64,000 nucleotides of DNA, from positions 34,750-98,749 of the forward strand of contig JANOQV010000012.1 in the NCBI GenBank assembly GCA_031414955.1. Reading direction: 5' to 3'. The notes beneath the pieces were generated by a model. That model saw only the letters and a program-made list of their open reading frames with translations, was not told the DNA's origin and searched no databases. The translations under genes and the position numbers were made by a program. Source of the DNA: Pedosphaera sp. Its GTDB lineage: Bacteria; Verrucomicrobiota; Verrucomicrobiia; Limisphaerales; SIBH01. This document shows, piece after piece, positions 34,401 to 59,646 of the stretch. Positions within the stretch are counted from its first letter, which is position 1, and each line of letters opens with the position of its first letter.

Positions 34401-37400
34401 GAAGCGCAGAGCGGGGTGATGGCCATTGCGGCAGGAAGGAACCACACTGTGGCCTTGAAGAATAATGGGAGCGTGGTGGCCTGGGGACGAAACTACGAAG
34501 GCCAGACGACCGTGCCCGGAGAAGCGCAGAGCGGCGTGACGGCGATTGCGGCCGGAGCTAATCACACCTTGGCCTTGAAGATCGGCGGGCGCGTACTGGG
34601 CTGGGGAGACGACGACAACGACCAATCGGATGTGCCCGGCGAGGCGCAAAGTGGAGTGGTGGCCATTGCGGCGGGAGGTTATCACAGTCTGGCTTTGAAG
34701 GCTGACGGTAGCGTGGTGGCCTGGGGAGAAAACGAGGACCCATGGGAACAACACTGGTACGGCCAGGCGACCGTGCCCGTGGCAGCGCAGAGTGGAGTGG
34801 AGGCCATCGCGGGGGGGAGCTACCACTCGGTCGCGCTCGTCATCCCCTCGGCCCCCAGCATCATTGCCCAACCCGTGAGCCAGGTGGCGAACGCCGGACA
34901 GAGCGCCACTTTCACCGTTACGGCCAGGGGTGCGCACAATTACTTCCAGTGGCGGAAGGATGGAACCAACCTCCCCGGGGCGGTGGGGGTCACCTTGCAC
35001 TTGAACAACGTCTGGTTCAGCGACGCGGGTTATTATACTGTGGTGGTGAGCAACTCCCTGGGCAGTGTGACGAGCGCGCCAGCAGCCGTGCTGACCGTGA
35101 ACGCCACCTCTCCCGGCGCAGTGATAGCGTGGGGATACAACGGCCGGGGCCAAACGACGGTGCCCGTGACGGCGCAGAGTGGAGTGATAGCAATTGCTGC
35201 GGGATATGGTCACACGGTGGCCTTGAAGAATGACGGAAGCGTGGTGGCATGGGCAGGGGACGGGTACGGCGAAGCGATCGTGCCTGTGGCCGCGCAGAGC
35301 GCGGTCAGGGCGATTGCGGCGGGACGATATCACACTGTGGCCCTGAAGAACGATGGGAGCGTGGTGGCGTGGGGAAGCTACTACACGGTCCCCGTGGCAG
35401 CGCAGAGCGGAGTGACGGCCATTGCGGCGGGAAGTTATCACGATGTTGCGCTGAAGAATGACGGGAGCGTGGTGGCGTGGGGGTGGAACGACTACGGCCA
35501 AACCATGGTGCCCATAGCGGCGCAAAGTGGAGTGATAGCAATTACTGCGGGATATGGTCACACCGTGGCCTTAAAAGACAACGGGAGCGTGGTGGCATGG
35601 GGAGACAATTGGTACGGCCAAACGACGGTGCCCGTGGTGGCGCAAAGTGGAGTGATAGCAATTGCTGCGGGATATGCTCACACCGTGGCCTTAAAAAACG
35701 ACGGAAGCGTCGTGGCGTGGGGATACAACTACTCCGGCCAGACGACCGTGCCCGTGGTGGCGCAGAGCGGGGTAGTCGCTATTGCGGCGGGAGATTGGCA
35801 CACCGTGGCCTTGAAGAACGACGGGAGCGTGCTGGCCTGGGGCCGAAACGACTACGGCCAAACGACGGTGCCTGTCGCAGCTCAGAGCGGGGTGATAGCC
35901 ATTGCGGGCGGAGGTTTTCACACCGTGGCACTGCTGGGGGATGGAAGACCGATCCTGACCTCTCATTTGGTGAATCAAACTGCTTTCCTTGGCGAAACCG
36001 TCCGCCTGGCCGCGATGGTCGTGGGCAACGGGCCGATGTTCTATCAGTGGCGCTTCAACGGACTGGACATCGCCGGAGGGACCAATGCCCTGTTCGAGAT
36101 CCTCAACGTGCAAACCAACCAGGCGGGGGCTTACACATTCGTCGCGAGCAATGCGCTGGGTTGGGTGACGGGCGCGGTGGCACAAGTGACAGTTCTCGTT
36201 CCGGCGCACGTTGATCCCCTGCCGCCGAGCACCACGGTCTTGCTCGGCTCCAATGTGACGTTCTCTGCGAACGCCTCGGGCACGCCGCCGCTGATCTATC
36301 AGTGGCGCAAGAATGGCGCGAACATTCCCGGCGCTACGAACGCCACCTTCACCCTCACCAACGTGCAGGTCATTGATGGCGGTGCCTACACGGTGGTGGT
36401 GCAGAACAATTACGGCGTTGCCACCAGCGATCCAACGCTGCTCATCGTCGAGGTGCCGCCACAAGCACCGGGAGATAATTTCGCCAATCGTGCCACGATC
36501 ATGAACACGGTTGGAGTCATCGGCGGCACGAACCGCTTCGCGACGAAGGAAACGGGCGAACCGCATCACGGCGGCAAGGCGGGCAGCAATTCTGTTTGGT
36601 ACACCTGGACCGCGCCGGCCACGGGCATCGCCACGTTCCGCACCCAAGGCAGCGTGTTCGACACTTTGCTCGGCATCTACACCGGCGGCACGGTGTCCAA
36701 TCTCACCACCATCGCCAGCGACGAAGACCTCGGCGGCTTCTTCACCAGCGAGGTGCAGTTCAATGCGCTGGCCGGAACGAGCTACCACATCGCGGTCGAT
36801 GGCTTTGCCGGCGGCTCAGGCGAGTTCATCCTGGGCTGGGACCTGGAGATCACGAGCGACACCTTGCCGGTGATCACCAATCAGCCAATCAGCCGTGCCG
36901 TGTTGATCGGTTCCGACGTGACGTTCAACGTGTCTGCTACGGGAACCGGCCTGACCTACCAATGGTTCTTCAATGACTCCGCGCTCCCCGGCGCGACCAA
37001 CACAGCCCTCACCCGCAGCAGCGTGCAAGCGGCGGATGTCGGATATTACACCGTGCGCGTGCGCAACAGCGTGGGACGTGAAGTGGACAGTCTGGCCGCG
37101 GCCCTGGAACTGGTGAGCGAGTTGCGGCCGCTTTCGCAGGACAAGCTGGAGGATCTGTTGTCACCGCCGCCAGCCCCGGACGGTCGCCCGCCCAAGGAGG
37201 GAGGCTCGTCCTTCACCGTGTCGCTCGGCACGATCGATTACCAGATCGTGAGCAATGTGCGTTCGACGACCCAGCCGTTGGAACCAACTCCGTGCGACGT
37301 GATCGGCGGGGCCAGCCAGTGGATCGTGTTGCGCGGGACGAGCAATGGCATGTTCCGCATCGACACCCTCGGCAGCAGCATCAACACGGTGCTGACGGTG

Positions 37401-48144: not shown

Positions 48145-51100
48145 CTAGGGCACCATCAATTCGTAGAAGACGGTATTGGTGCCAGCGAGCGAGTTCGTCA
48201 CGGTGACCGATCCGAAGAAGTTGGTGTAAACATTCGTCCAGAGCGTGCTCGCGGCCGGGCTTCTCAGGCCGATGCTGCGCCGAAGGATGACGGTGGCATT
48301 GCTGCCACAAGTATTTATGACTGGATTGCTCCAGTTCAGCACACCTCGGGTGGTGCCATTGCTGTAGGTGATGCTAGTCCGCAGACCGTTGGTACCGAGC
48401 TTGAAGCCAGTCTGCCAGGCGATGTTCGTGCATATCACTCCTCCATTCGTCACGGTCAACACCGCCACGCTGCTGGTGGCGCTGCTGAAGGAGTTGTTGG
48501 CCCGCATCACATAGTTGGAAATGTTCGCGGTCGTGAGGTTCGGGATGACCAGCAGGCTGTTGGTCTCGCCGGAAAGAATAGCACCATTCTTGTACCACTG
48601 AAGGGTGATAGGCAGCGTGCCGGTGGCAGTAGAGCGGAAGAACGCGGTCGAAGCCACGCCATTCGTGCGACTGCGCGGATGCTCCACGATCCGCACCGGA
48701 ATCGGCGTGGGCAACGGCCCGGAAGCAACGGTGGCAGTCATCTCCAGACCAAAAACCACATCGGAACTGGCGGCACCACTCTGGTGGACTTCCGCAGCAA
48801 AGACGTTGGTGCCGGGCAGCAAGGTGACGATCAAATCGACTGGTCCCACAATGACGGCATCACCAACGGCTGCAATGCCCTGACTGGCGGCGGTCATCTG
48901 GCCGGCCGGCATGTTGAAGCGGTAGATTTCAGCCCCGTTCAGGTAGAGAACCAGACCGTCGTCAACGATATGGCGGAGACGCAGCACGGTGTTCGCACCG
49001 CCGATCACGGCCGTGTATTTTTGGCGGAAATAGAATGTGTTGTAGCGGTTGCCAACTCCATCAGCCAAGGCCAGCGGGGTATTCTTGGCCGCTGGCAAAG
49101 GCGCGCCTTCCACGTAAAACAAGGCGTTGCTCGGCCCCGACCAGGTCGAGTCATCGAAAGAAGGAGTGAAGTAGGAGGCGTGGATTTCCTCGTTGGTGTT
49201 CACGAGCAGGTACTTCCAAGCGTTGGTGAAGGAGGCCACCTGCAAGACCGCGCCGACAGTGACTGAACTGTTGGGCGCGATGGGGTTGGCCCGGCTGGAG
49301 GCATCGGTCAGGTTGTTCACCACCACCATGTAGGCACCAACCGGGAGCGGGCTGGCAAAGTTCAGGACGACGTTGGAGCCATTCAGGACGGCGCTGGAGA
49401 CGGGGAAGGTTCCGCCTACAATGTTGGTGACAAGATAGTTCACAACGAGTTGCGCCGGGGTCGCGGCCATTCGCTTACTGAAACCAAGCTGAATGGAAGT
49501 GCTGGAGACCAGAGAGCCGGACAGAAGAACGGGCGCGTTGGAATCAGTGATGACATACAATCGAGCCACGATACTGGTGGCGCTGCCAGAGGCTGGGTTG
49601 CTCACGATGGCGCGGAATTGCCAGCCTGCCATGTTGGTCGAGACGTTCGCGATGGTGTAGTTGGCCGCAGCGGCCCCGGCCACATTCACGTTATTGGTCT
49701 GCCATTGATAGGACACTCCCGCGACAGAGAAGACCTGGAAGGTGGCGGACTGGCCTTCGACCACGGTTTGATCAAACGGGCCATTCAAGACCTGCACCGG
49801 GCCGTTGGTGAAGGACTCCACGAAAGCATCCAGTTGCAGGCCAAATTCCTTGTCGATGTCGTTGATTTGTGGCTGATGCACCTCAACGGCGATCACGTTG
49901 CTGCCAACCTGATAGGAGGGAAGGGCGATGGAAATTGGTCCAATGCGGCTCGAATCACCCACCACTGCAGACGGCAGAGTCAAATAGTTGATCGCACCCG
50001 TGGGCATATTAAAGCGAAGAAATTCGCTCCCGTTCATCCAGAAAACGGCACCATCGTCCAAAATGTGAGTGACGGCGAAATTCAGGTTGCCGGGGCTGGC
50101 CTGTAGGTTGAATCCACCCCGGAAGTAGGAGGTAATGCTCGGCGCTTCCGACAAGGGCGTGCCGCCAGGGCCAGGAAGGTTATCTGCCGGTGAAACGTAA
50201 AACACACCGAAGCCAGGACTCATATATTGCTCATCCGGGTAACTGAAATCCTTCCAAGCGGTCCCCAAATCGGGCCCAATGACATCGAAAGGGGGGAATG
50301 GATCCAGGACGTTCCAAGCCGCAAGCGGATTGTTCAAACCACCCAAAGCCTTGGTCAGCACCTTCATGGTGATGGGCATCATGCTGTTCGGGGCGATGAG
50401 ATTGGTGGCCGGGGAAGTATCGCGGACGTTGTTCACGATCAGAACGTAGTTGTTATTGACGAGGCGCGGGGCGGTCGTGGTGAGCAGGACGTTGCTACCA
50501 TTAACCCGAACCGCACTGGAGACGGTGAGCATTCCGCCGAGAGTGTTGGTGATTTTGTAATAGGCAGCATTGGTGGCGGTGGAGGCCAGCACTAGTTCAG
50601 AGTAACCAACCAGCACCTGGGAGTTGGTGGCGGTACCGTCCGCCATGACCAGCAGGGGCCGGTTGGTGTCAACGATGACTCCCAAAGTGACCACGCTGCT
50701 GGTGACGCTGTTCACGGTATTGCTGGCCACGACGAAGTAACTTCCCACGTCGTTGGTGGTCGCCGACGCGATGATCAACGGATTTTGGGTGGCGTTGGAG
50801 ACAGCCACGCCATCCTTGTACCACTGGTAGTAGGCGGGTTGGCCCTGGAGCCCAAGAGTGAAGTCGGCGATCTTGGTTTCCTCGACCACCAAATTTTGCG
50901 GCTGGCTGGTGATGGCGAGGAGACTGGGATTGTAAAAGTTGACGTTCACCTGCATACCGAAGTCAACGTCACTGCTGGTGTTGTTCACCTGGTGGACTTC
51001 CACCGCCAAGGTGTTGGTGCCCTGAATCAGGAGAGATGAAGGGATGTTGGATACGACAAAAACAGCTTCAGTCAAAGTGCCCGGGGCTGTGACAGTGCAA

Positions 51101-52653
51101 GCCGGATCCCCAGCGGCCATGTTAATGCGAATCGCCTCGACCCCGTTAACATAAAAGATGGCTCCGTCGTCCACGTAGTTGCTGGCCACCAACTGAACTT
51201 CGCTGGGATTATTGGTCAGAACAAACTGCGTGCGAAAATAGTAGGTGATGACGCGATTACCGCCGCCATCGGTCAGGGACAAAACGGTGTTGGTCAATGG
51301 GGTTAGGGCGGCATTGTCTTCGACAGCAAACAGTCCCCGTCCCTGCGGCCAAGCAGCATCATTAGTGTAATTAGCAGTTCTCCAACTCGCATCAAGACAG
51401 ACACCCGCCTGGTTGTATTTCCAGAAATGATTGGTCAGTCCGACGATGACATACGGATTGTCCGCAACAGAGACCACGGCGCTGGCGCTGTTCGGCAACA
51501 CGGCACAGTTGTCCACCGCTAGGGTGTAAAGCCCGGAATCGGAGGACACGGCGTTCAGTTTGGTGTAAGTGGCGTTGGTTGCGCCGAGGAGGATGGCTCC
51601 ATTCCGATACCATTGATAGGAGATGGGCGAGGTGCCAGCCACTAGGGCGTTCACGGTGATGGTCGCTCCCGGAGCGACGGACTGGTCAGCGGGCGGAACA
51701 GTGAATGTGGTCGGGGTGGAGCAATTCACCACCACCAAGGCGTTGCTGCTGGTGACGGAGCCAAAGACATTCGCAACGACCACCGAATACAGACCGCCAT
51801 CAATCGGCTGCGCATTGACAATGGTGAACGAACTGTTGGTTGCATTGACAATCAGGTTGCTCTCCTTGCGCCACTGATAGGAGAGCGGTTGAGCACCGGT
51901 GGCGACCACGGTCAGGGTCACGTTTTGTCCGGGGGAGACAGAAGAATCCTGCGGCTGAGTGGTGATGCCGGGGAAAGGAATCGTGACGGCAAAATTATCG
52001 ATCTGGTAGGCACCATCGGTATTCGTCACAGAGTTGTCATCCGCGAAAAGAATATACATCTTGCTGCCACCAACCCAGGGGCTGGCGAGGCTGATGTTGA
52101 TGTTGGTGTTGCCCGCCGCGTAGAAGTTGCCGAGCGCCACCCAACTGCTGGCCAGACCGCTCAGGCTGTAATAGACGCGATGCCCGGGGCTTTCCTCCGC
52201 CGTCGCCGCCACGGCCACGGCCAGGCTGTAGCTCAGACCGATGTTAGTGAGACTGCTGCCAGAAGTGTTGGTGAGCGAGGCCATGAGCAAGGTCGCCGCG
52301 TTGCCCGTGGGCCGGGTTTGGAGATAAAAGCCCAAACTGCTCCATTGAGCAGTAGCGGCGGTACCAGGCGGATTAGCAGCATTGTTTCCCACGGCCGCGT
52401 TAATCAGAGCGGCGGTGTTGGTCTGCACGGCGGCATCCAGAGTTGCCAGCGTGGTGGCTGTTTGGAAATCGTTTGCGGTGCCTGGGATGGAACGTGTGGA
52501 CCAACTAGTGGCCGGCGGAAGCGTGCCAAAAATATTCACCGCGCTGCCGGCCGGCCCGACGGAGATTTGGGCCGCAGCTTTGGATGGTCCGCTGAACAGA
52601 GCCAGAGCGATAGAGCCGGCCGTCAATAGGGTTCTCAGAGTTTGGGTTCGCAT
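48145..52653 (-). CDS. Large secreted surface protein with Ig-like and three lectin/jelly-roll-like domains
   Basis: Signal peptide; Ig YQW motifs; three repeats of YFR..F...DDGA...NG.E..R.NM...N..AVEVHQ. Confidence 0.85.
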   Translation of the reverse strand: MRTQTLRTLLTAGSIALALFSGPSKAAAQISVGPAGSAVNIFGTLPPATSWSTRSIPGTANDFQTATTLATLDAAVQTNTAALINAAVGNNAANPPGTAATAQWSSLGFYLQTRPTGNAATLLMASLTNTSGSSLTNIGLSYSLAVAVAATAEESPGHRVYYSLSGLASSWVALGNFYAAGNTNINISLASPWVGGSKMYILFADDNSVTNTDGAYQIDNFAVTIPFPGITTQPQDSSVSPGQNVTLTVVATGAQPLSYQWRKESNLIVNATNSSFTIVNAQPIDGGLYSVVVANVFGSVTSSNALVVVNCSTPTTFTVPPADQSVAPGATITVNALVAGTSPISYQWYRNGAILLGATNATYTKLNAVSSDSGLYTLAVDNCAVLPNSASAVVSVADNPYVIVGLTNHFWKYNQAGVCLDASWRTANYTNDAAWPQGRGLFAVEDNAALTPLTNTVLSLTDGGGNRVITYYFRTQFVLTNNPSEVQLVASNYVDDGAIFYVNGVEAIRINMAAGDPACTVTAPGTLTEAVFVVSNIPSSLLIQGTNTLAVEVHQVNNTSSDVDFGMQVNVNFYNPSLLAITSQPQNLVVEETKIADFTLGLQGQPAYYQWYKDGVAVSNATQNPLIIASATTNDVGSYFVVASNTVNSVTSSVVTLGVIVDTNRPLLVMADGTATNSQVLVGYSELVLASTATNAAYYKITNTLGGMLTVSSAVRVNGSNVLLTTTAPRLVNNNYVLIVNNVRDTSPATNLIAPNSMMPITMKVLTKALGGLNNPLAAWNVLDPFPPFDVIGPDLGTAWKDFSYPDEQYMSPGFGVFYVSPADNLPGPGGTPLSEAPSITSYFRGGFNLQASPGNLNFAVTHILDDGAVFWMNGSEFLRFNMPTGAINYLTLPSAVVGDSSRIGPISIALPSYQVGSNVIAVEVHQPQINDIDKEFGLQLDAFVESFTNGPVQVLNGPFDQTVVEGQSATFQVFSVAGVSYQWQTNNVNVAGAAAANYTIANVSTNMAGWQFRAIVSNPASGSATSIVARLYVITDSNAPVLLSGSLVSSTSIQLGFSKRMAATPAQLVVNYLVTNIVGGTFPVSSAVLNGSNVVLNFASPLPVGAYMVVVNNLTDASSRANPIAPNSSVTVGAVLQVASFTNAWKYLLVNTNEEIHASYFTPSFDDSTWSGPSNALFYVEGAPLPAAKNTPLALADGVGNRYNTFYFRQKYTAVIGGANTVLRLRHIVDDGLVLYLNGAEIYRFNMPAGQMTAASQGIAAVGDAVIVGPVDLIVTLLPGTNVFAAEVHQSGAASSDVVFGLEMTATVASGPLPTPIPVRIVEHPRSRTNGVASTAFFRSTATGTLPITLQWYKNGAILSGETNSLLVIPNLTTANISNYVMRANNSFSSATSSVAVLTVTNGGVICTNIAWQTGFKLGTNGLRTSITYSNGTTRGVLNWSNPVINTCGSNATVILRRSIGLRSPAASTLWTNVYTNFFGSVTVTNSLAGTNTVFYELMVP

Positions 52654-52904
52654 AAAGGTGTAGGGTTTTTGATTCACGAGACACGCCGTTGTCGCATCGA
52701 AATTGAGTTTGCACTTCATGGGTTGTTTCAGAAGTGCAACAAGGAATCACGGTTGGCCCTCTTTGGCAACAGTGAAAACAGGCGGCGCGATTATTTTTTG
52801 AGGTATTTTTCCTGCCTCGCCTTGGGAGGCGGCCTCGCGCCAGTTGCGGCCCGGCGGCTGGTTCCGCCGGTAATAATTTGTCGCCGGTATCAGGGACATA
52901 AAAA

Positions 52905-53720: not shown

Positions 53721-53796
53721 AAATTTTGGCCAGACGTAGTCTTTTCAATCCCAGAGCGACCTTGAGTTGCTCTGGGGTTTTTGTTTCTGTCCTGCT

Positions 53797-56142
53797 GTGA
53801 AGTGGAAGGCGTCGCCACTTGTTCTCATCCTGATATGCGCTGGCGTGATCGCCGGTTTGAGTTTGCTTGAATGGTTAGGTGAGACTCAGCAGCGCCTCAC
53901 TTTTTTCAAGCGGCTTGAATGGATCACCTATGATTGGCGGGTCCGTGAAGCGGCCCGGCACGCCTCGCCCGTCGCCACCAATCTTGGTTTTGTAACTTTG
54001 GATGAGGGCAGCATTGACGCTGTCTTGAACGGCTCGTTGCCTTATCGATTTGGGTTGCTCTGGCCCCGGCAGGTTTACGGTCGGCTTGTGAGTGAACTTT
54101 CCGCCCAAGGCGCGAATGTCGTGGGCCTGGATGCGTTGTTTTCCGAATTGCGACCGGATCACCAGGCGGTGTCCACCGATGGCGGCTCGATTTCTTCCGA
54201 CGCCTTCTTCGCCCATGCCATGCGCCGCAGTGGACGGGTGTTACTTGCGACGGAGGATGGTCTTTTCCCACCGGAATTGTTTGCGACCAATGCGCTGGGC
54301 GTGACGCATCTCGCCGCGCAACCGGAATCGGATGGCATTCTCCGGCGTGCTCAGGCTTTCATCGAGGTGCGCGAATGGCACCCCGCCATCAAGCAGGCAG
54401 CGCGGGAATTCGGCTGGGACTTGAATCGGTTCACCTCGAATTCGCGCCAACTTATTTTTCCCCGGCAGGATGGCGGGGGCACAAACATTCTGGCCCTCGA
54501 CGCCGCAGGCCGGTTCAACGTCGGCCTGCTGGAGCGCGCGCTATCCAGCGACAAGATGAGCCCGCTCGTCTGGCGTTTTGCCGTGCCGTTCAAGGATCAC
54601 CGTTTGTGGCACCTCGGCCTCGAAATAGCGGCGCGGGAATTGAAATTCGACCTGAAGAATGCACTCATCGATTTGGAGCGGGGGCAAATCATTCTCTCGA
54701 ATACCCAAGGTGTGCGGCGTGTGCTGCCCGTGGATCGCGCGGGCCGGTTTTACATCCACTGGAGCGTCGGGATGGCGGACCCACGGTTGACGACCAGGCC
54801 CATCGAGCACCTGCTTCACCAATACGAAGCTCGGCGGGCCGGGCGCATGGACGAAGTGACCAACGAGTGGGCTGGTAAACTGGTGGTGGTTGGCTCCACG
54901 GCCTCCGGGAACAACCTGAGTGATCGGGGCGCGACGCCCTTGGAGCAGCAAACTTATCTCGTGAGCGGATATTGGAACGTCGCTAATTCGTTGCTCGTAA
55001 ACCGGTTCGTGCATCCCCTGGGCCTGCCCGCCCGCCTGCTCATCATCGTATTCTTCGCCGTGCTCTCCGCTTTCCTTACTTTGAATGCGCGCCTGCTGGT
55101 CGCGATCGCTTCCATTGTGGCGTTGGCCCTGGCTTACGCCGGCTTCGCCTATGTTTTGTTTATCAAGACAGGCCACTGGCTTCCGATGGTGATGCCGGTG
55201 GCTGGTTCGTTGCTGGTGACCCATGTAAGCCTCATCACCTATCTGGTGCGCGTCGAACGGCGGCTGCGCAGGCACACCAAGGAGATCTTCAGCCGGGTGG
55301 TTTCCCCAGATATTGTGCATGAACTGCTGGATCGGGAAAAACTGCAACTGGGCGGCGCACGGCGGCGCATCACGATATTTTTCGCCGACATTCGAGGCTT
55401 CACCGCCGTGACCGAGCGCAGCCAGCAGCGAGCGGAAGAACTGGTGGCCCGGAGGTGCCTTTCAGGAGCCGAAGCGGAACGGCAATTCGATATCGAGGCC
55501 GAGACGGTGCTAAACACGGTCAACCCCTACTTGAGTGCCGTGGGTGATGTGATTTTGAAGCACGGCGGCTCGCTCGACAAATACATCGGCGATTGTGTGA
55601 TGGCCTTTTGGGGCGCGCCGGCGGCAAATCCGCGCCATGCCGGTGCCTGCGTCCGCGCGGCGGTCGAGGTGCAGCGCGTCGTGCTGGAATTGAACGAGCA
55701 ACGCCAGGCTGAGAATGTTCGCCGGACGGCGGAGCACCTCCATCGCGCGACCCCCGGCCAGGATGCCTTGCCGATGCTCGAAATCCTGACGCTGGGCTCC
55801 GGCGTCAACACCGGCGTGGTGACCGTTGGCATGGTCGGTTCCGAGGCCCATTTGATGAACTACACCGTGTTCGGCCGCGAGGTAAACCTGGCCAGCCGGC
55901 TCGAAGGTGCTTCGGGCCACGCCCGCATTTTGATCAGCGCAGAAACACATGGTGATCTCCTGCGCGATGATCCGGAACTGGCCGCGCTTTGCCGGGAGCA
56001 TCCGCCGCTCACGCTCAAAGGTTTCCGCGACCCGGTGAAAGCTTATGAGGTGATGTGGCGTCCGGCGGATGTCTCCGGGGACGAAGCCGGCCAAACCATG
56101 ACCACCATCCGCTCCAAGACCCAGCGCGAGACCCCCAACTGA
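53797..56142 (+). CDS. CHASE2-domain class III adenylate cyclase
   Basis: WPR.VY..LV, GANVVGLD.LF, DGILRR CHASE2; 3 TMs; FADIRGFT, DKYIGDCVMAFW, YTVFG.EVNLASRLE (Lys/Thr suggests ATP). Confidence 0.92.
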   Translation: MKWKASPLVLILICAGVIAGLSLLEWLGETQQRLTFFKRLEWITYDWRVREAARHASPVATNLGFVTLDEGSIDAVLNGSLPYRFGLLWPRQVYGRLVSELSAQGANVVGLDALFSELRPDHQAVSTDGGSISSDAFFAHAMRRSGRVLLATEDGLFPPELFATNALGVTHLAAQPESDGILRRAQAFIEVREWHPAIKQAAREFGWDLNRFTSNSRQLIFPRQDGGGTNILALDAAGRFNVGLLERALSSDKMSPLVWRFAVPFKDHRLWHLGLEIAARELKFDLKNALIDLERGQIILSNTQGVRRVLPVDRAGRFYIHWSVGMADPRLTTRPIEHLLHQYEARRAGRMDEVTNEWAGKLVVVGSTASGNNLSDRGATPLEQQTYLVSGYWNVANSLLVNRFVHPLGLPARLLIIVFFAVLSAFLTLNARLLVAIASIVALALAYAGFAYVLFIKTGHWLPMVMPVAGSLLVTHVSLITYLVRVERRLRRHTKEIFSRVVSPDIVHELLDREKLQLGGARRRITIFFADIRGFTAVTERSQQRAEELVARRCLSGAEAERQFDIEAETVLNTVNPYLSAVGDVILKHGGSLDKYIGDCVMAFWGAPAANPRHAGACVRAAVEVQRVVLELNEQRQAENVRRTAEHLHRATPGQDALPMLEILTLGSGVNTGVVTVGMVGSEAHLMNYTVFGREVNLASRLEGASGHARILISAETHGDLLRDDPELAALCREHPPLTLKGFRDPVKAYEVMWRPADVSGDEAGQTMTTIRSKTQRETPN

Positions 56143-56193: not shown

Positions 56194-56295
56194 GGTAGGG
56201 CGGCGCTGTCCCCAGCGCGCCGGGGTGAGGCGTGGAAAGTGCGGGAGTTCTCCTCCATTCGTGGCCCGGCGCGCTGGGGACAGGCGCGCCCTACC
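56194..56295. repeat. GTAG-type REP dimer between convergent genes
   Basis: GGTAGGGCGGCGCTGTCCCCAGCGCGCCG ... CGGCGCGCTGGGGACAGGCGCGCCCTACC; related copy inside uvrA at 5549-5618. Confidence 0.8.
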
Positions 56296-56298
56296 CCC

Positions 56299-56760
56299 TC
56301 ACTTCACCCGCAGCACCCACACCACTTCGTAATAAGTGGGCAGGCTCGACGCGGGATCGCTGGTGTAATTGCCCGGCGGGAAGACGGTGACGTCCGCGCC
56401 CGCCACCACCGTGCCGCCGTTGATGTTCAAGGGCAGTCCATGCGAATGAATCTCGTTGCCACCCGTGCCGCCGCTGGCATTCGCCCCGCGCAGGAAGACC
56501 GGCACCCCGCCTTGCGCTCCGTTCAGGTCCGGTGCGTTCAATCCGTTCAGCGGCGAGTCGGGATCACTGATGGCCTGCCCATTGCACTCGACCCAGGTGC
56601 CGGGCAGCGCGGGCACATTGGGCAGGCTTTTCAAATAACCGCTCACGCCCCCGACCGGATACACCGCGTCGATGAGCGCCTTGAGCGCGTTGAGTTGCGC
56701 GCGCATCTCGGCCGAGGCGAGCGGCGATTGGTTGGAAGGTTTGTTCGGATCAAAGGGCAT
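56299..56760 (-). CDS. Small phage tail-collar-like domain protein
   Basis: YPVG...P..WVECNGQ...PDLNG..FLRG...GG.E.HSH...LP.YY.V.WV.RVK pattern. Confidence 0.65.
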   Translation of the reverse strand: MPFDPNKPSNQSPLASAEMRAQLNALKALIDAVYPVGGVSGYLKSLPNVPALPGTWVECNGQAISDPDSPLNGLNAPDLNGAQGGVPVFLRGANASGGTGGNEIHSHGLPLNINGGTVVAGADVTVFPPGNYTSDPASSLPTYYEVVWVLRVK

Positions 56761-56768
56761 GGGCGAAG

Positions 56769-56799
<31 letters not shown>

Positions 56800-56885
56800 C
56801 GGGGAAAGCGGCGGTGAGGACCCTGTTCGTTGCCACGGCTCGGCGTTCCGTGGCGGGTGGCGGGAGCGGGCTTCTCACCCCGCTC

Positions 56886-57159
56886 TGAAACCAAGGAAAC
56901 ACCGGGCCAAAAACCCAAGTGAACCGGCTGGAAACCGCGCCGAAGTGCTCAAGAAGCCGACCTCGTTGCTCGGATATCCGACCTCCGGGCCTGGAATTCG
57001 AACCGGATCGGCCTCGGATTCCGACCTCAAAGCTCGGATTTCGGTGCTTCTGGGCGCGGTTTTCGACCGAAGAGGTCGGGTTTTTTACCTCGGAGTCCGG
57101 GTTTTTGACCGATTTGGCCGAGTTTTCAGGCACTGGGGCCGGGTTCTTTACTGATAACG
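56886..57159. repeat. Degenerate 21-bp-period array (about 13 units), quasi-palindromic
   Basis: Units such as CCGGGTTTTTGACCGATTTGG, TCGGGTTTTTTACCTCGGAGT, TCGGATATCCGACCTCCGGGC; dyad centre about 56997. Confidence 0.75.
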
Positions 57160-57184
57160 CCTTCATTGACAGCGATTAGCGTGT

Positions 57185-57772
57185 TTAAGGCGTCGGCGGC
57201 GTCGGCGTGGGGCCACCGCCGCCCCCGCGCGGGAAGAACCGCTTGAGATTGTCGAGGATGGTATTCGCGCCGGGCACGTTGCGCTTCGCGGCCTGCTTCA
57301 CGTTGCTGTAGAAACTCAGGTAGGCCATGTAAGTGTCCACCCCCGCCGCCGTCTGCGTGTCATCCACGCCTTCGCAGAGCGGGCCGAGCTGCTGGAAGAT
57401 CTCGCGCAAGGCCGAGCGCAGGGCGCGATCCTTGTTCACTTCGGCCAGGTCCACGAAGCCCGGCACCAGTTCGGGATGCGCGGCCATTTCCAGGGCGAAG
57501 GCCTCATCCATGCCGCTGCGGATGGTGCTCATCTTGGGCAGCGAACTTTTCTCCTCCGTGGTGAGGTTGAGCAGAAAGGGCAGTAGCGCGGTGATTTCAT
57601 CCAGCTTGGTCAGGATGGTGTTTTTATTGGCCGAGGTCAGCTCGGCCGAGATGCGATTATCCATGGTTTGTGTATGAGTTGAGGTTTGCGGTTGATGGCC
57701 ATCCCAAGTGAGTTCGGGCGAATCCCACGACCAGGCGGGGTTCGGCGCGTCCCAAGTGAGCGGCGTTGACAT
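57185..57772 (-). CDS. Conserved-looking alpha-helical hypothetical protein with Trp-Asp-rich leader (alternative start 57664)
   Basis: MSTPLTWD..WSWD..LTWDG leader; core NRISA..LPFL.NLT.EE...LPKM..P.LVP..DDT...G..AY...L..Y..VK.A; PTP tail. Confidence 0.75.
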   Translation of the reverse strand: MSTPLTWDAPNPAWSWDSPELTWDGHQPQTSTHTQTMDNRISAELTSANKNTILTKLDEITALLPFLLNLTTEEKSSLPKMSTIRSGMDEAFALEMAAHPELVPGFVDLAEVNKDRALRSALREIFQQLGPLCEGVDDTQTAAGVDTYMAYLSFYSNVKQAAKRNVPGANTILDNLKRFFPRGGGGGPTPTPPTP

Positions 57773-57810
57773 GCCCGTGGATATACGCCGGAGACGCGGC
57801 GGGCATAAGA

Positions 57811-57824
57811 GGAACAGTTGTTCC
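57811..57824. promoter_or_regulatory. Palindromic operator candidate
   Basis: GGAACA-GT-TGTTCC about 40 nt upstream of ATG 57772. Confidence 0.45.
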
Positions 57825-57989
57825 CCCCGGAGAACCGCCTCGCATTGCGAATGTGGTGGAACCGGCCGCGCTGCGACCAGGAGCGCCGCGTAACAGCGGC
57901 GCAACAAACTCGCGAGAGTCTCGCCCGGTCGCACGCCCCACCCGGACCGCCCGCTGATGCGCGGGCGAGTTGTCGCAGCGCGACGACTG

Positions 57990-58304
57990 CTACCTCGCCA
58001 CCCGCGCGCGGCGCTCGGCCTCGCGCACGAGCTGCCACGGAAATAATTCCAGCGCGTGCCCCAGTCGCGCCAGCGTGTCCAGCCCCGGCACGCGCTTGGC
58101 CCGCTCCACCAGCGACACGGCCTGATGCGACAAGCGCGAGCGCCGCGCCAGTTCCTTGAGCGACAGACCGAGCTTGACCCGCCGCTCGCGCAGCAACTCC
58201 GGCAGGGCCAGACAGACTGGTTCCAACAACGCGCGCGGCCCGGCCTGAGGTGCGCGCCGGGGGAGCGGTGGGGAGGAACTCTTTCGGGATGATTTCTTTT
58301 TCAT
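57990..58304 (-). CDS. XRE/Cro-family helix-turn-helix regulator
   Basis: LRERR..LGLSLKELARRS.LS...VS.VER..R.P.L.TL.RL..AL. Confidence 0.88.
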   Translation of the reverse strand: MKKKSSRKSSSPPLPRRAPQAGPRALLEPVCLALPELLRERRVKLGLSLKELARRSRLSHQAVSLVERAKRVPGLDTLARLGHALELFPWQLVREAERRARVAR

Positions 58305-58827
58305 GCCCGCGAGCCTCGCCCAAGGGATGGGACAAATACGGTCCCACCGGGGAAATAGTTTCGGAGCCAGCCAGGTGGGCGGCGACGAAATCCGGACCGG
58401 TTTCCAGGCAGGAGAAATCCATGCACCACAAACATATCCCGCCCGCCGAGGGTTCAATCTTCGGTGTAAAATTGGGAAACGAAGTCGGGTGCGGACCTGG
58501 CGGAGTGCCGCCATCGCCCCCGTTTGGGCGCTGGTTTGGGCTGGGAATGGCCGCAAGAATCGGGGCCTTCTGGCCAAGCCCGGTCAAGCGCGGGCCACCG
58601 GCTCAGGGCAATAATCGAGCATGAAGACCAGGGACCAAATGCACCCAAGCCCGCCGAGAAAGATGATCGGCCAGCACGAACCGGCGTGCCATAGCGAGTT
58701 GAAGAAACTAGGAACCGACCGCTCACGCTAATGGGTGCCCCCGTTATGACCCCGTTACGACGACGCGGGCGACACCGACCTGCTGCGGGATGGACAAACC
58801 CAGGGACTTCAGGTAGGAAAATGAACG

Positions 58828-59646
58828 TTGAAAGCGCTGACCATACTCTTCGTTTCAATTGTTTCCATCCTGGCCCAAAGCCCGCCCCCGGCGCACCGTC
58901 TGCTTGGCACCAACATTGTAGATTTCACTTGGGTGTTGCGGGAACTGGCTAATCCCAATTCGGCGGTTGACTGGCACCGCAAATACATTGCGGCTGGTAA
59001 AGTGGAAAAAGTTTCCGCGGGCGGACTCATCGCGCTGGCCCAGACGCGAAAAGTTTACGAGTACAACACCGACTCTGTGAGCGGGCAACTGACGCGCCAG
59101 TACGGGGGCGGGTCCGATATGCTCGGCATGATGGCCGCGGCCAGGCTCGGGCAGAACGGTCCCATTAGCGCGGGCCATTACTTCTCGCTCAGCCCCAATC
59201 TGCGCCAGTATTTCAACGAAGTGAACCTGAAGACGGTGGTGACGGTGCGTGGCTATGAGCAGCCAACCTTCGTTGGTCAGAGTCTGGAGTTGGTCGCATG
59301 GCCGGTCGGCGTGAATACATTTGACTATGGCACGCCGGTGGCTGGCAACCTGGGTGACAAGGCCAGATTCGTCCTCAACGTGGGACCCAACGGAGTGACC
59401 ACGTCACGCGCGGCGTCCACCGCAGATTTGAAACAGAGCGAGGCTGTGGCCTTCGAGCGCCAGCGTATCGCAGCCACCAACGGATCCGGCTCGGCGCAGT
59501 ACGAGGTCGGCAAGCGATACCTGACCGCCGAGGAATTCGAACTGGCCCGCCACTGGCTGATGGCCGCGAAGACCAATGGATATGCGCAAGCCGCCGATAG
59601 GCTGCTCGAGAAGATCAAGCCTTCCAGTGCTCTCCCCGGCAAATGA
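58828..59646 (+). CDS. Exported hypothetical protein with C-terminal Sel1-like repeat
   Basis: TTG start and signal peptide; A.NG...AQY.VG.RYL...A..WL..A..NG..QA. Confidence 0.6.
   Translation: MKALTILFVSIVSILAQSPPPAHRLLGTNIVDFTWVLRELANPNSAVDWHRKYIAAGKVEKVSAGGLIALAQTRKVYEYNTDSVSGQLTRQYGGGSDMLGMMAAARLGQNGPISAGHYFSLSPNLRQYFNEVNLKTVVTVRGYEQPTFVGQSLELVAWPVGVNTFDYGTPVAGNLGDKARFVLNVGPNGVTTSRAASTADLKQSEAVAFERQRIAATNGSGSAQYEVGKRYLTAEEFELARHWLMAAKTNGYAQAADRLLEKIKPSSALPGK

Follow-up and report, generated by a model that had tools for sequence, protein, structure and literature searches.

The gap of 425 nt that separates two minus-strand genes in the window (the whole stretch of 64,000 nt that was analysed, positions 34750 to 98749 of contig C12) holds a mirrored array of 13 units with a period of 21 nt (56886 to 57159, not assigned to a strand), and it belongs to a lineage-wide class of "period-locked" arrays in which the length of the unit is kept while its sequence, its orientation, and its degree of palindromy are free. 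Arrays of this class are non-coding and locked in period, they are conserved in position and bear no RNA signature, and they lie beside gene starts. The unit length is 21 bp in the window's own genome and 22 bp in a sister clade, corresponding to about two turns of the double helix. Our tentative reading is that the array is a non-coding cis element, phased at the DNA level, that lies upstream of an accessory gene and may be bound by the XRE regulator encoded nearby; the binding of a protein, its identity, and any effect on regulation are inferred.

The host genome (6.5 Mb, 62.3% G+C, 313 contigs) has its relatives in Prosthecobacter, Luteolibacter, and Verrucomicrobiaceae metagenome-assembled genomes (MAGs). 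The gap is bordered by a gene that we call "up" (57185 to 57634) and by a tail-collar-like gene (56299 to 56760); read along the minus strand, it contains the array (57159 to 56886), a separate small hairpin (56885 to 56864), and G-poor heptamers (56799 to 56769). The small hairpin, read from the sequence on the minus strand, has a 7-bp stem and an 8-nt loop and stands directly past the array without a U-tail. The heptamer repeat, delimited by tandem-repeat and genome searches, comprises 4.4 perfect copies (GAGGGTT on the plus strand, G-poor on the minus strand), and its last copy lies 8 nt ahead of the collar-like start codon. This stretch has 19 other matches in its own genome and is hugely over-covered in four metagenome runs (1000 to 5000x summed contig depth), and G-poor heptamer arrays also occur directly ahead of the start codons of collar-like paralogues (C12, C58, C125, C161, and C128). 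The 153-aa product of the collar-like gene weakly resembles tail collar fibre proteins (phrog_1800, E = 0.0083), and its first ~33 residues recur in genes whose C-terminal parts vary; it has 220 relatives, with collagen repeats in 4 among the 120 matches listed.

The gene "up", placed by family and fold searches, encodes a helical protein of 149 aa if the count begins at the conserved start MDNRISA, the database copy having 159 aa; it represents a family of ~150-aa proteins restricted to Verrucomicrobia, with 75 database relatives, all unnamed and all from this phylum. One gene beyond "up" in the upstream direction, the cassette opens with an XRE-family helix-turn-helix (HTH) regulator gene on the minus strand (57990 to 58303; HTH_3, E = 1.2e-9), whose start at 58303 is our choice inside ORF 57990-58577. 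Parts of the non-coding minus-strand stretch ahead of the HTH gene (58300 to 58472) are 85% identical to stretches that precede the HTH genes of two other array-bearing cassettes (C58:643-738 and C213:29399-29460), the DNA being far more alike than the proteins; this stretch, which may be a shared promoter/operator or a cassette boundary, has no folding signal (z = 0.16) and no Rfam match. A scan for sigma-70-like promoters across 56200 to 58700 returned no sites. On the far side, a CHASE2-adenylate/guanylate cyclase gene (53767 to 56142, plus strand) converges on the cassette, and further away a minus-strand gene (48145 to 52719) encodes a 1524-aa protein with several immunoglobulin-type domains.

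The 21-nt periodicity claimed in an earlier note on this DNA was borne out by autocorrelation: the self-match over 56886 to 57159 is 0.455 at lag 21, 0.47 at lag 42, and 0.42 and 0.43 at lags 63 and 64, compared with ~0.19 to 0.30 at other lags. Stacking likewise gives 13 units, one of them the 22-nt unit that had been placed at 56991 to 57012, which contains overlapping GAATTC and TTCGAA palindromes at 56994 to 57002. The best periodic-segment score of the gap is 15.0, against 99th percentiles of 9.7 for 1,500 random 450-nt segments of the genome and 7.5 for shuffles; Tandem Repeats Finder picks up only the best-kept part (57058 to 57126, 3.3 copies, 68% matches), and the units decay toward both array ends. 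The units abut without spacers, which rules out a CRISPR array, and an origin of the 21-mer from heptamers was rejected because there is no 7- or 14-nt signal within the array. Read on the minus strand, the array has A-runs in its first ~6 units and T-runs in its last ~4; three central units (56970 to 57024) are palindromic, including a perfect 12-nt palindrome at 56970 to 56981 and a near-palindrome at 57014 to 57024, with 0 to 2 nt between the arms, a spacing that suits a protein site and not an RNA loop. When the first six units were compared with the reverse complement of the last six, the identity was 0.49 to 0.505 at shifts spaced 21 nt, which equals the identity inside one arm (0.46 to 0.51) and exceeds that of the two arms in direct orientation (0.39 to 0.46; shuffle null, 0.364 ± 0.029), and the array is therefore mirrored. 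Dyad symmetry of the unit is not significant in this array (z = -1.6, column-permutation test).

The earlier note had described a long imperfect hairpin. All four of the complementary pairs that it named are in place about a common centre at 56997, and the minus strand folds better than dinucleotide shuffles (-108.6 kcal/mol, z = -3.12, with none of 200 shuffles as good); the plus strand reaches -109.4 kcal/mol (z = -2.04, 7 of 200 shuffles as good). Three fold-back centres spaced 10.5 nt apart (57018, 57007.5, and 56997) are about equally good, and permuting the order of the 13 units in 300 trials gave a mean minus-strand MFE of -110.7 (SD 5.7) compared with -108.6 for the native order; the folding of the native array is matched or surpassed by 64% of the permutations on the minus strand and by 92% on the plus strand. 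The three equal registers and the permutation result rule out a single evolved long hairpin, indicating that the hairpin potential is real but derives from the units. Long hairpins in such arrays should thus not be read as evolved RNA structures.

At the "up" locus, the array is conserved in position and not in sequence. Metagenome contigs scanned with an alignment of 32 "up" sequences yielded 38 loci, 31 of them distinct and with at least 120 nt downstream; 27 of these 31, whose homologues are 48 to 83% identical, exceed the 99th percentile of the null for a 20- to 23-nt periodicity, and the remaining four score 7.5 to 8.2. The period of the significant arrays is 21 nt in 20 cases and 22 nt in seven, and never 20 or 23 nt. 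Among the named genomes (Prosthecobacter, Luteolibacter, and Verrucomicrobiaceae MAGs), a set in which locus L048 equals L012, the array is present at 9 of 10 "up" loci and absent in L055. An even sample of the phylum found the "up" family in 6 of 400 other genomes, with strong arrays after "up" at two loci (L059 and L063), weak periodicity at two (L060 and L066), and no array periodicity at two more (L061 and L064); one further locus (L062) was too short to judge. In half of the 38 loci (19), the next gene opens with the ~33-residue N terminus of the collar-like gene, 340 to 610 nt past the "up" stop codon.

The sequences of the units vary widely between these loci, and many of them form a short inverted repeat around an A- or T-run; one locus (L018) has ~14 nearly perfect units, and by eye the unit of L046 is about the reverse complement of that of L038. 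Orthologous arrays are barely alignable at ~80% protein identity and too divergent for column-wise covariation, and the array DNA gave no match in 40 related genomes. A paralogous "up"/collar pair on C58 is accompanied by a 21/42-nt array whose unit is unrelated, and there, too, heptamers precede the start codon; the "up" gene of this pair (C58:1551-2021) has one in-frame TAG and is accordingly a pseudogene or an assembly error. Upstream of "up", two related loci have a 23S-rRNA-intervening-sequence-type four-helix-bundle protein (L025:2090-2530) and a tyrosine integrase (L037:701-1756), respectively, genes that hint at some cassettes lying in mobile or variable regions.

The same period recurs across the window's own genome. 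Non-coding stretches with at least 50% self-match in a 126-nt scanning window were found at periods of 7 (98 stretches), 14 (13), 21 (25), 42 (28), 63 (17), and 41 nt (5), and at periods 20 and 22 there were none; multiples of 3 besides 21, 42, and 63 gave 0 to 10 non-coding matches each. Two of the five period-41 stretches are true 41-mers (C111:2541-2928 and C210:34958-35174), and many of the 98 heptamer stretches are arranged as mirrored arms. Helical quantisation at three turns was dropped, as the eight "period-32" matches are artefacts of mirrored heptamer arrays. The ~25 arrays with a 21-nt period have units unrelated in sequence, and in a DNA search the window array matches only itself. 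Own-genome arrays mostly end 24 to 90 nt ahead of a start codon, those at divergent genes included (C32, C137, C215, C279, and C280). Of 52 arrays, 10 have significant dyad symmetry of the unit (P ≤ 0.01 by column permutation) and 42 do not; A/T-tracts are phased in 24 of the 52 (at least 0.25 tracts per unit) and lacking in 14, a distribution on which A-tract curvature was rejected as a common principle. Frequent neighbours of the arrays are toxin-antitoxin-like pairs and XRE genes; the genes adjoining them (C280, C288, C32, C279/C249, C236, C136, and C292/C208) often encode helical proteins without a known family, and several such proteins seem, by eye, to end in a part resembling fibronectin type III or in a tail rich in Pro/Thr or Ser, like that of "up".

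In the reading that we tentatively prefer, that of a phased DNA element, the array takes up the interval immediately before the G-poor leader and start codon of the collar-like gene, where a short site, bend, or half-palindrome every two helical turns would place all copies on one face of the DNA. Since the copies would share one face, the most likely action is the seeding of a cooperative, one-sided protein-DNA assembly or of a coherently bent or cruciform-prone stretch, and such an assembly would set the amount of transcription that reaches or starts at the downstream gene. The evidence that we count toward this element is a place conserved without sequence, the period lock, the lack of a strand signal, the proximity to start codons, the dyads in 10 of 52 arrays, and an association with HTH_3 genes: of the 19 such genes in the genome, 4 are followed on their own strand, at a distance of no more than 1 kb, by a strong 21-nt array (self-match 0.54 to 0.66, the 99th percentile of random 3.2-kb windows being 0.55), compared with a chance expectation of ~0.2 by our own estimate.

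The best candidate binder in the window would be the cassette's own XRE-type repressor (57990 to 58303), which is a better candidate than the "up" protein. The latter looks acidic (by eye, not computed), and its structure model is all-helical (pLDDT 90.2); it belongs to no family in Pfam, NCBIfam, or PHROGs, and no PDB sequence scored better than E = 0.011 in a profile search. The model has no credible match in Foldseek on PDB, in VIA-align wide (best Z = 4.8), or in BFVD, and no fold match to a DNA binder, while the ESM Atlas returned only unnamed Bacteroidota clusters; the acidic look, the lack of a Pfam family, and the lack of a DNA-binder fold match make "up" a poor candidate. The closest known parallel is in lambdoid and 434-type phages, whose repressors Cro and cI, of the XRE family, bind cooperatively to neighbouring operators spaced by about two helical turns. 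The array resembles these operators in its short sites with centres about two helical turns apart on one DNA face and in its position just upstream of what may be the regulated gene. It may also resemble them in partial dyad symmetry, the three central units being palindromic, and in having a cognate regulator, the candidate being the XRE-type gene of the same cassette; the spacing is an integral number of helical turns here (21 nt) and in all 27 significant related arrays (21 or 22 nt). It differs in having 13 or more degenerate sites instead of 2 or 3, and most related array loci have no nearby HTH gene (an HTH_3 gene lies upstream in 6 of the 30 loci with at least 500 nt upstream, 79 of 83 candidate ORFs having been compared).

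Several other observations weigh against a phased DNA element. The ~25 arrays of one genome have unrelated units, so many specific binders or one shape-reading binder would be required, and the HTH proteins of C249 and C292 are 69% identical yet adjoin quite different units. Helical phasing alone would tolerate ±1 bp, whereas the own genome is strictly at 21. In addition, dyads are not significant in the window array or in 42 of the 52 arrays, A/T-tract phasing reaches only 24 of 52, no promoter-like site was found in the region scanned, and arrays occur sporadically in housekeeping contexts.

This sporadic occurrence is the starting point of the strongest alternative, which we consider rather doubtful though only a little behind the phased element: function-less (selfish or neutral) expanding repeats that recur through slippage or through a fixed-length duplicating enzyme, are tolerated in long gaps, and then decay by mutation, so that the period mirrors the generating mechanism and not a use. 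Independent origins are apparent after ribE, where the own genome has an array and 0 of 10 genus relatives do, and before a response-regulator orthologue, where 1 of 8 relatives has one with an unrelated unit. Turnover of the units outpaces that of the neighbouring proteins, as the barely alignable orthologous arrays illustrate; in a second strain, 4 of 328 array-region positions are changed versus 1 of 458 in "up", and the decay toward the array ends, the 98 heptamer arrays and 12 Y1-transposase (PF01797) matches of the genome, and a strictly integer period per lineage that fits a mechanical ruler all favour this alternative. Metagenome contigs mapped to the region indicate that the array is stable in its source population. 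Against function-less repeats, the presence of the array at the "up" locus is kept over 48 to 83% protein identity (27 of 31 metagenome loci and 9 of 10 in named genomes), the unit matches only itself in its own genome and nothing in 40 relatives and is thus not dispersed, and no transposase adjoins the array; we know of no slippage process that fixes 21 nt.

The array has features of REP/BIME/REPIN elements, being intergenic, hairpin-capable, and palindromic in a genome with PF01797 matches, but none of those 12 matches is on C12, and the array differs in that its unit is not dispersed, is syntenic across orthologous loci, and has a locked period with a free sequence. A further, unlikely proposal joins mechanism and use: a molecular "ruler" of the Verrucomicrobiaceae that measures two turns of the helix would create or maintain dozens of sequence-unrelated arrays per genome, and those next to small cassettes of accessory genes, such as the up-array-fibre one, would have been retained for their control over these genes. 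Candidates for such a ruler would be a DNA-binding protein that forms filaments or an enzyme of the integrase or transposase type making staggered cuts 21 bp apart (22 bp in the sister clade).

A structured RNA, with the array transcribed inside an up-to-fibre messenger or as a long leader, is also improbable in our judgement. Its hairpins would stabilise the upstream cistron or serve as RNase III substrates, as terminators or insulators in tandem, or as multiple sites for a bound protein. The flanking genes are co-oriented, and at several loci the array stops only 22 to 45 nt short of the next start codon, so that a separate promoter could hardly fit; the sense-strand MFE (z = -3.1), the resemblance of some units to small terminators with a T-run (L014 and L046), the 6 terminator-like sites in the window versus 2.5 ± 1.5 expected, and an excess of A over T on the sense strand in 25 of 33 "up"-locus arrays point the same way. 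Base pairing argues otherwise. In dyad-paired columns, picked by Watson-Crick symmetry alone, the sense strand has 125 G-U compared with 257 A-C combinations, so that G-U is not in excess; per array, A-C exceeds G-U in 18 of 28 and the reverse holds in 6 of 28, roughly following base composition. The antisense strand folds better than the sense strand in 20 of 29 "up"-locus arrays, and 16 own-genome arrays oriented by the following gene are without bias (sense better in 8, A > T in 7, C > G in 6). We found no strand-specific RNA signature in the arrays.

Palindromes with gaps of 0 to 2 nt, moreover, cannot form RNA hairpin loops, hairpins do not need a narrow period of 21 or 22 nt, permuted unit orders fold equally well, and the covariance models of Rfam 15 gave no match at E ≤ 1 over 56300 to 57700 and 57900 to 58900. 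At L059 and L063, the "up" stop codon is followed, ahead of the array, by a strong hairpin with a T-run that we read as an intrinsic terminator, and the array is thus probably outside the "up" messenger there. The earlier proposal that selection acts on the nucleic acid, for example as a dsRNA scaffold or as phased binding sites for the upstream protein, survives in part: the periodicity belongs to the nucleic acid and not to a protein, as GC3, stop codons, and 22-nt periods indicate, whereas a dedicated dsRNA scaffold finds no support in the unit-order permutation, the rarity of G-U, or the antisense folding; phased binding sites may be present, with "up" a poor candidate for their binder.

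Far less probable is that the array represents the replication-origin iterons or the partition centromere (sopC/parC-like) of an integrated element. Iterons of theta plasmids (R6K gamma, RK2, and pPS10) are direct repeats of ~17 to 22 bp at a spacing of ~22 bp, and the partition centromere of the F plasmid, sopC, consists of tandem 43-bp units, each with an inverted repeat at its core and spanning a whole number of helical turns. The 13 direct-repeat units at 21 nt are iteron-like, the tandem units with integral helical turns and palindromic cores are sopC-like, and an integrase lies upstream at one related locus (L037). Unlike iterons, however, the array is without an initiator gene, arrays number dozens per chromosome, and the mirrored or palindromic units differ between arrays; unlike sopC, it has no partition genes nearby, has a unit of 21 bp instead of 43 bp, and sits in the chromosome amid accessory genes. 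Pfam, NCBIfam, and PHROGs profiles run against the ORFs nearby revealed no Rep, ParA, ParB, ParM, or ParR family, and the ~25 arrays per genome are located between ordinary chromosomal genes.

The array is non-coding, with codon statistics like those of intergenic DNA: the ORFs across it have GC3 values of 0.61 to 0.67 and codon scores of -0.16 to +0.09 (flanking genes, 0.81 to 0.85 and 0.28 to 0.43, respectively) and match no Pfam, NCBIfam, or PHROGs family. The least credible explanation is therefore a small heptad-repeat protein from the minus-strand ORF 56750-57166, which does exist with its SVKNPxx heptads and has an open frame in which 21 nt equal seven codons, but which has a codon score of -0.04 and a GC3 of 0.66, overlaps the start of the next gene out of frame, and loses its heptad register at the 22-nt unit, as the earlier note had recognised and stacking confirms; all three sense frames are stopped in 12 of 28 homologous arrays, that of the closest orthologue (L011) among them, and the 22-nt period at seven loci is not a multiple of 3, and on these grounds the coding reading was rejected.

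Borg elements, archaeal and extrachromosomal, carry tandem repeats that evolve fast, form independently, and occur inside and between genes (PMC9879509). The arrays share with them fast evolution and independent formation, and they differ in that the parts of that account consulted describe no fixed unit length across unrelated repeats (PMC9879509). The listings and abstract openings returned by a literature search contained no description of such period-locked arrays.

All that is conserved in these arrays is how long the unit is, 21 or 22 bp or roughly two turns of the helix, in unrelated sequences at one syntenic position family-wide. Sequence is what ordinarily identifies a bacterial cis element. 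Arrays with a function would amount to regulatory or architectural DNA built from phase alone, together with a binder or mechanism able to read or write that phase; arrays of selfish or mutational origin would reflect a fixed-step duplication process that has not yet been described. Either outcome is directly testable in cultured Prosthecobacter or Luteolibacter, and a molecular ruler in the Verrucomicrobiaceae, if true, would mean a new class of cis elements that is defined by length and not by sequence.
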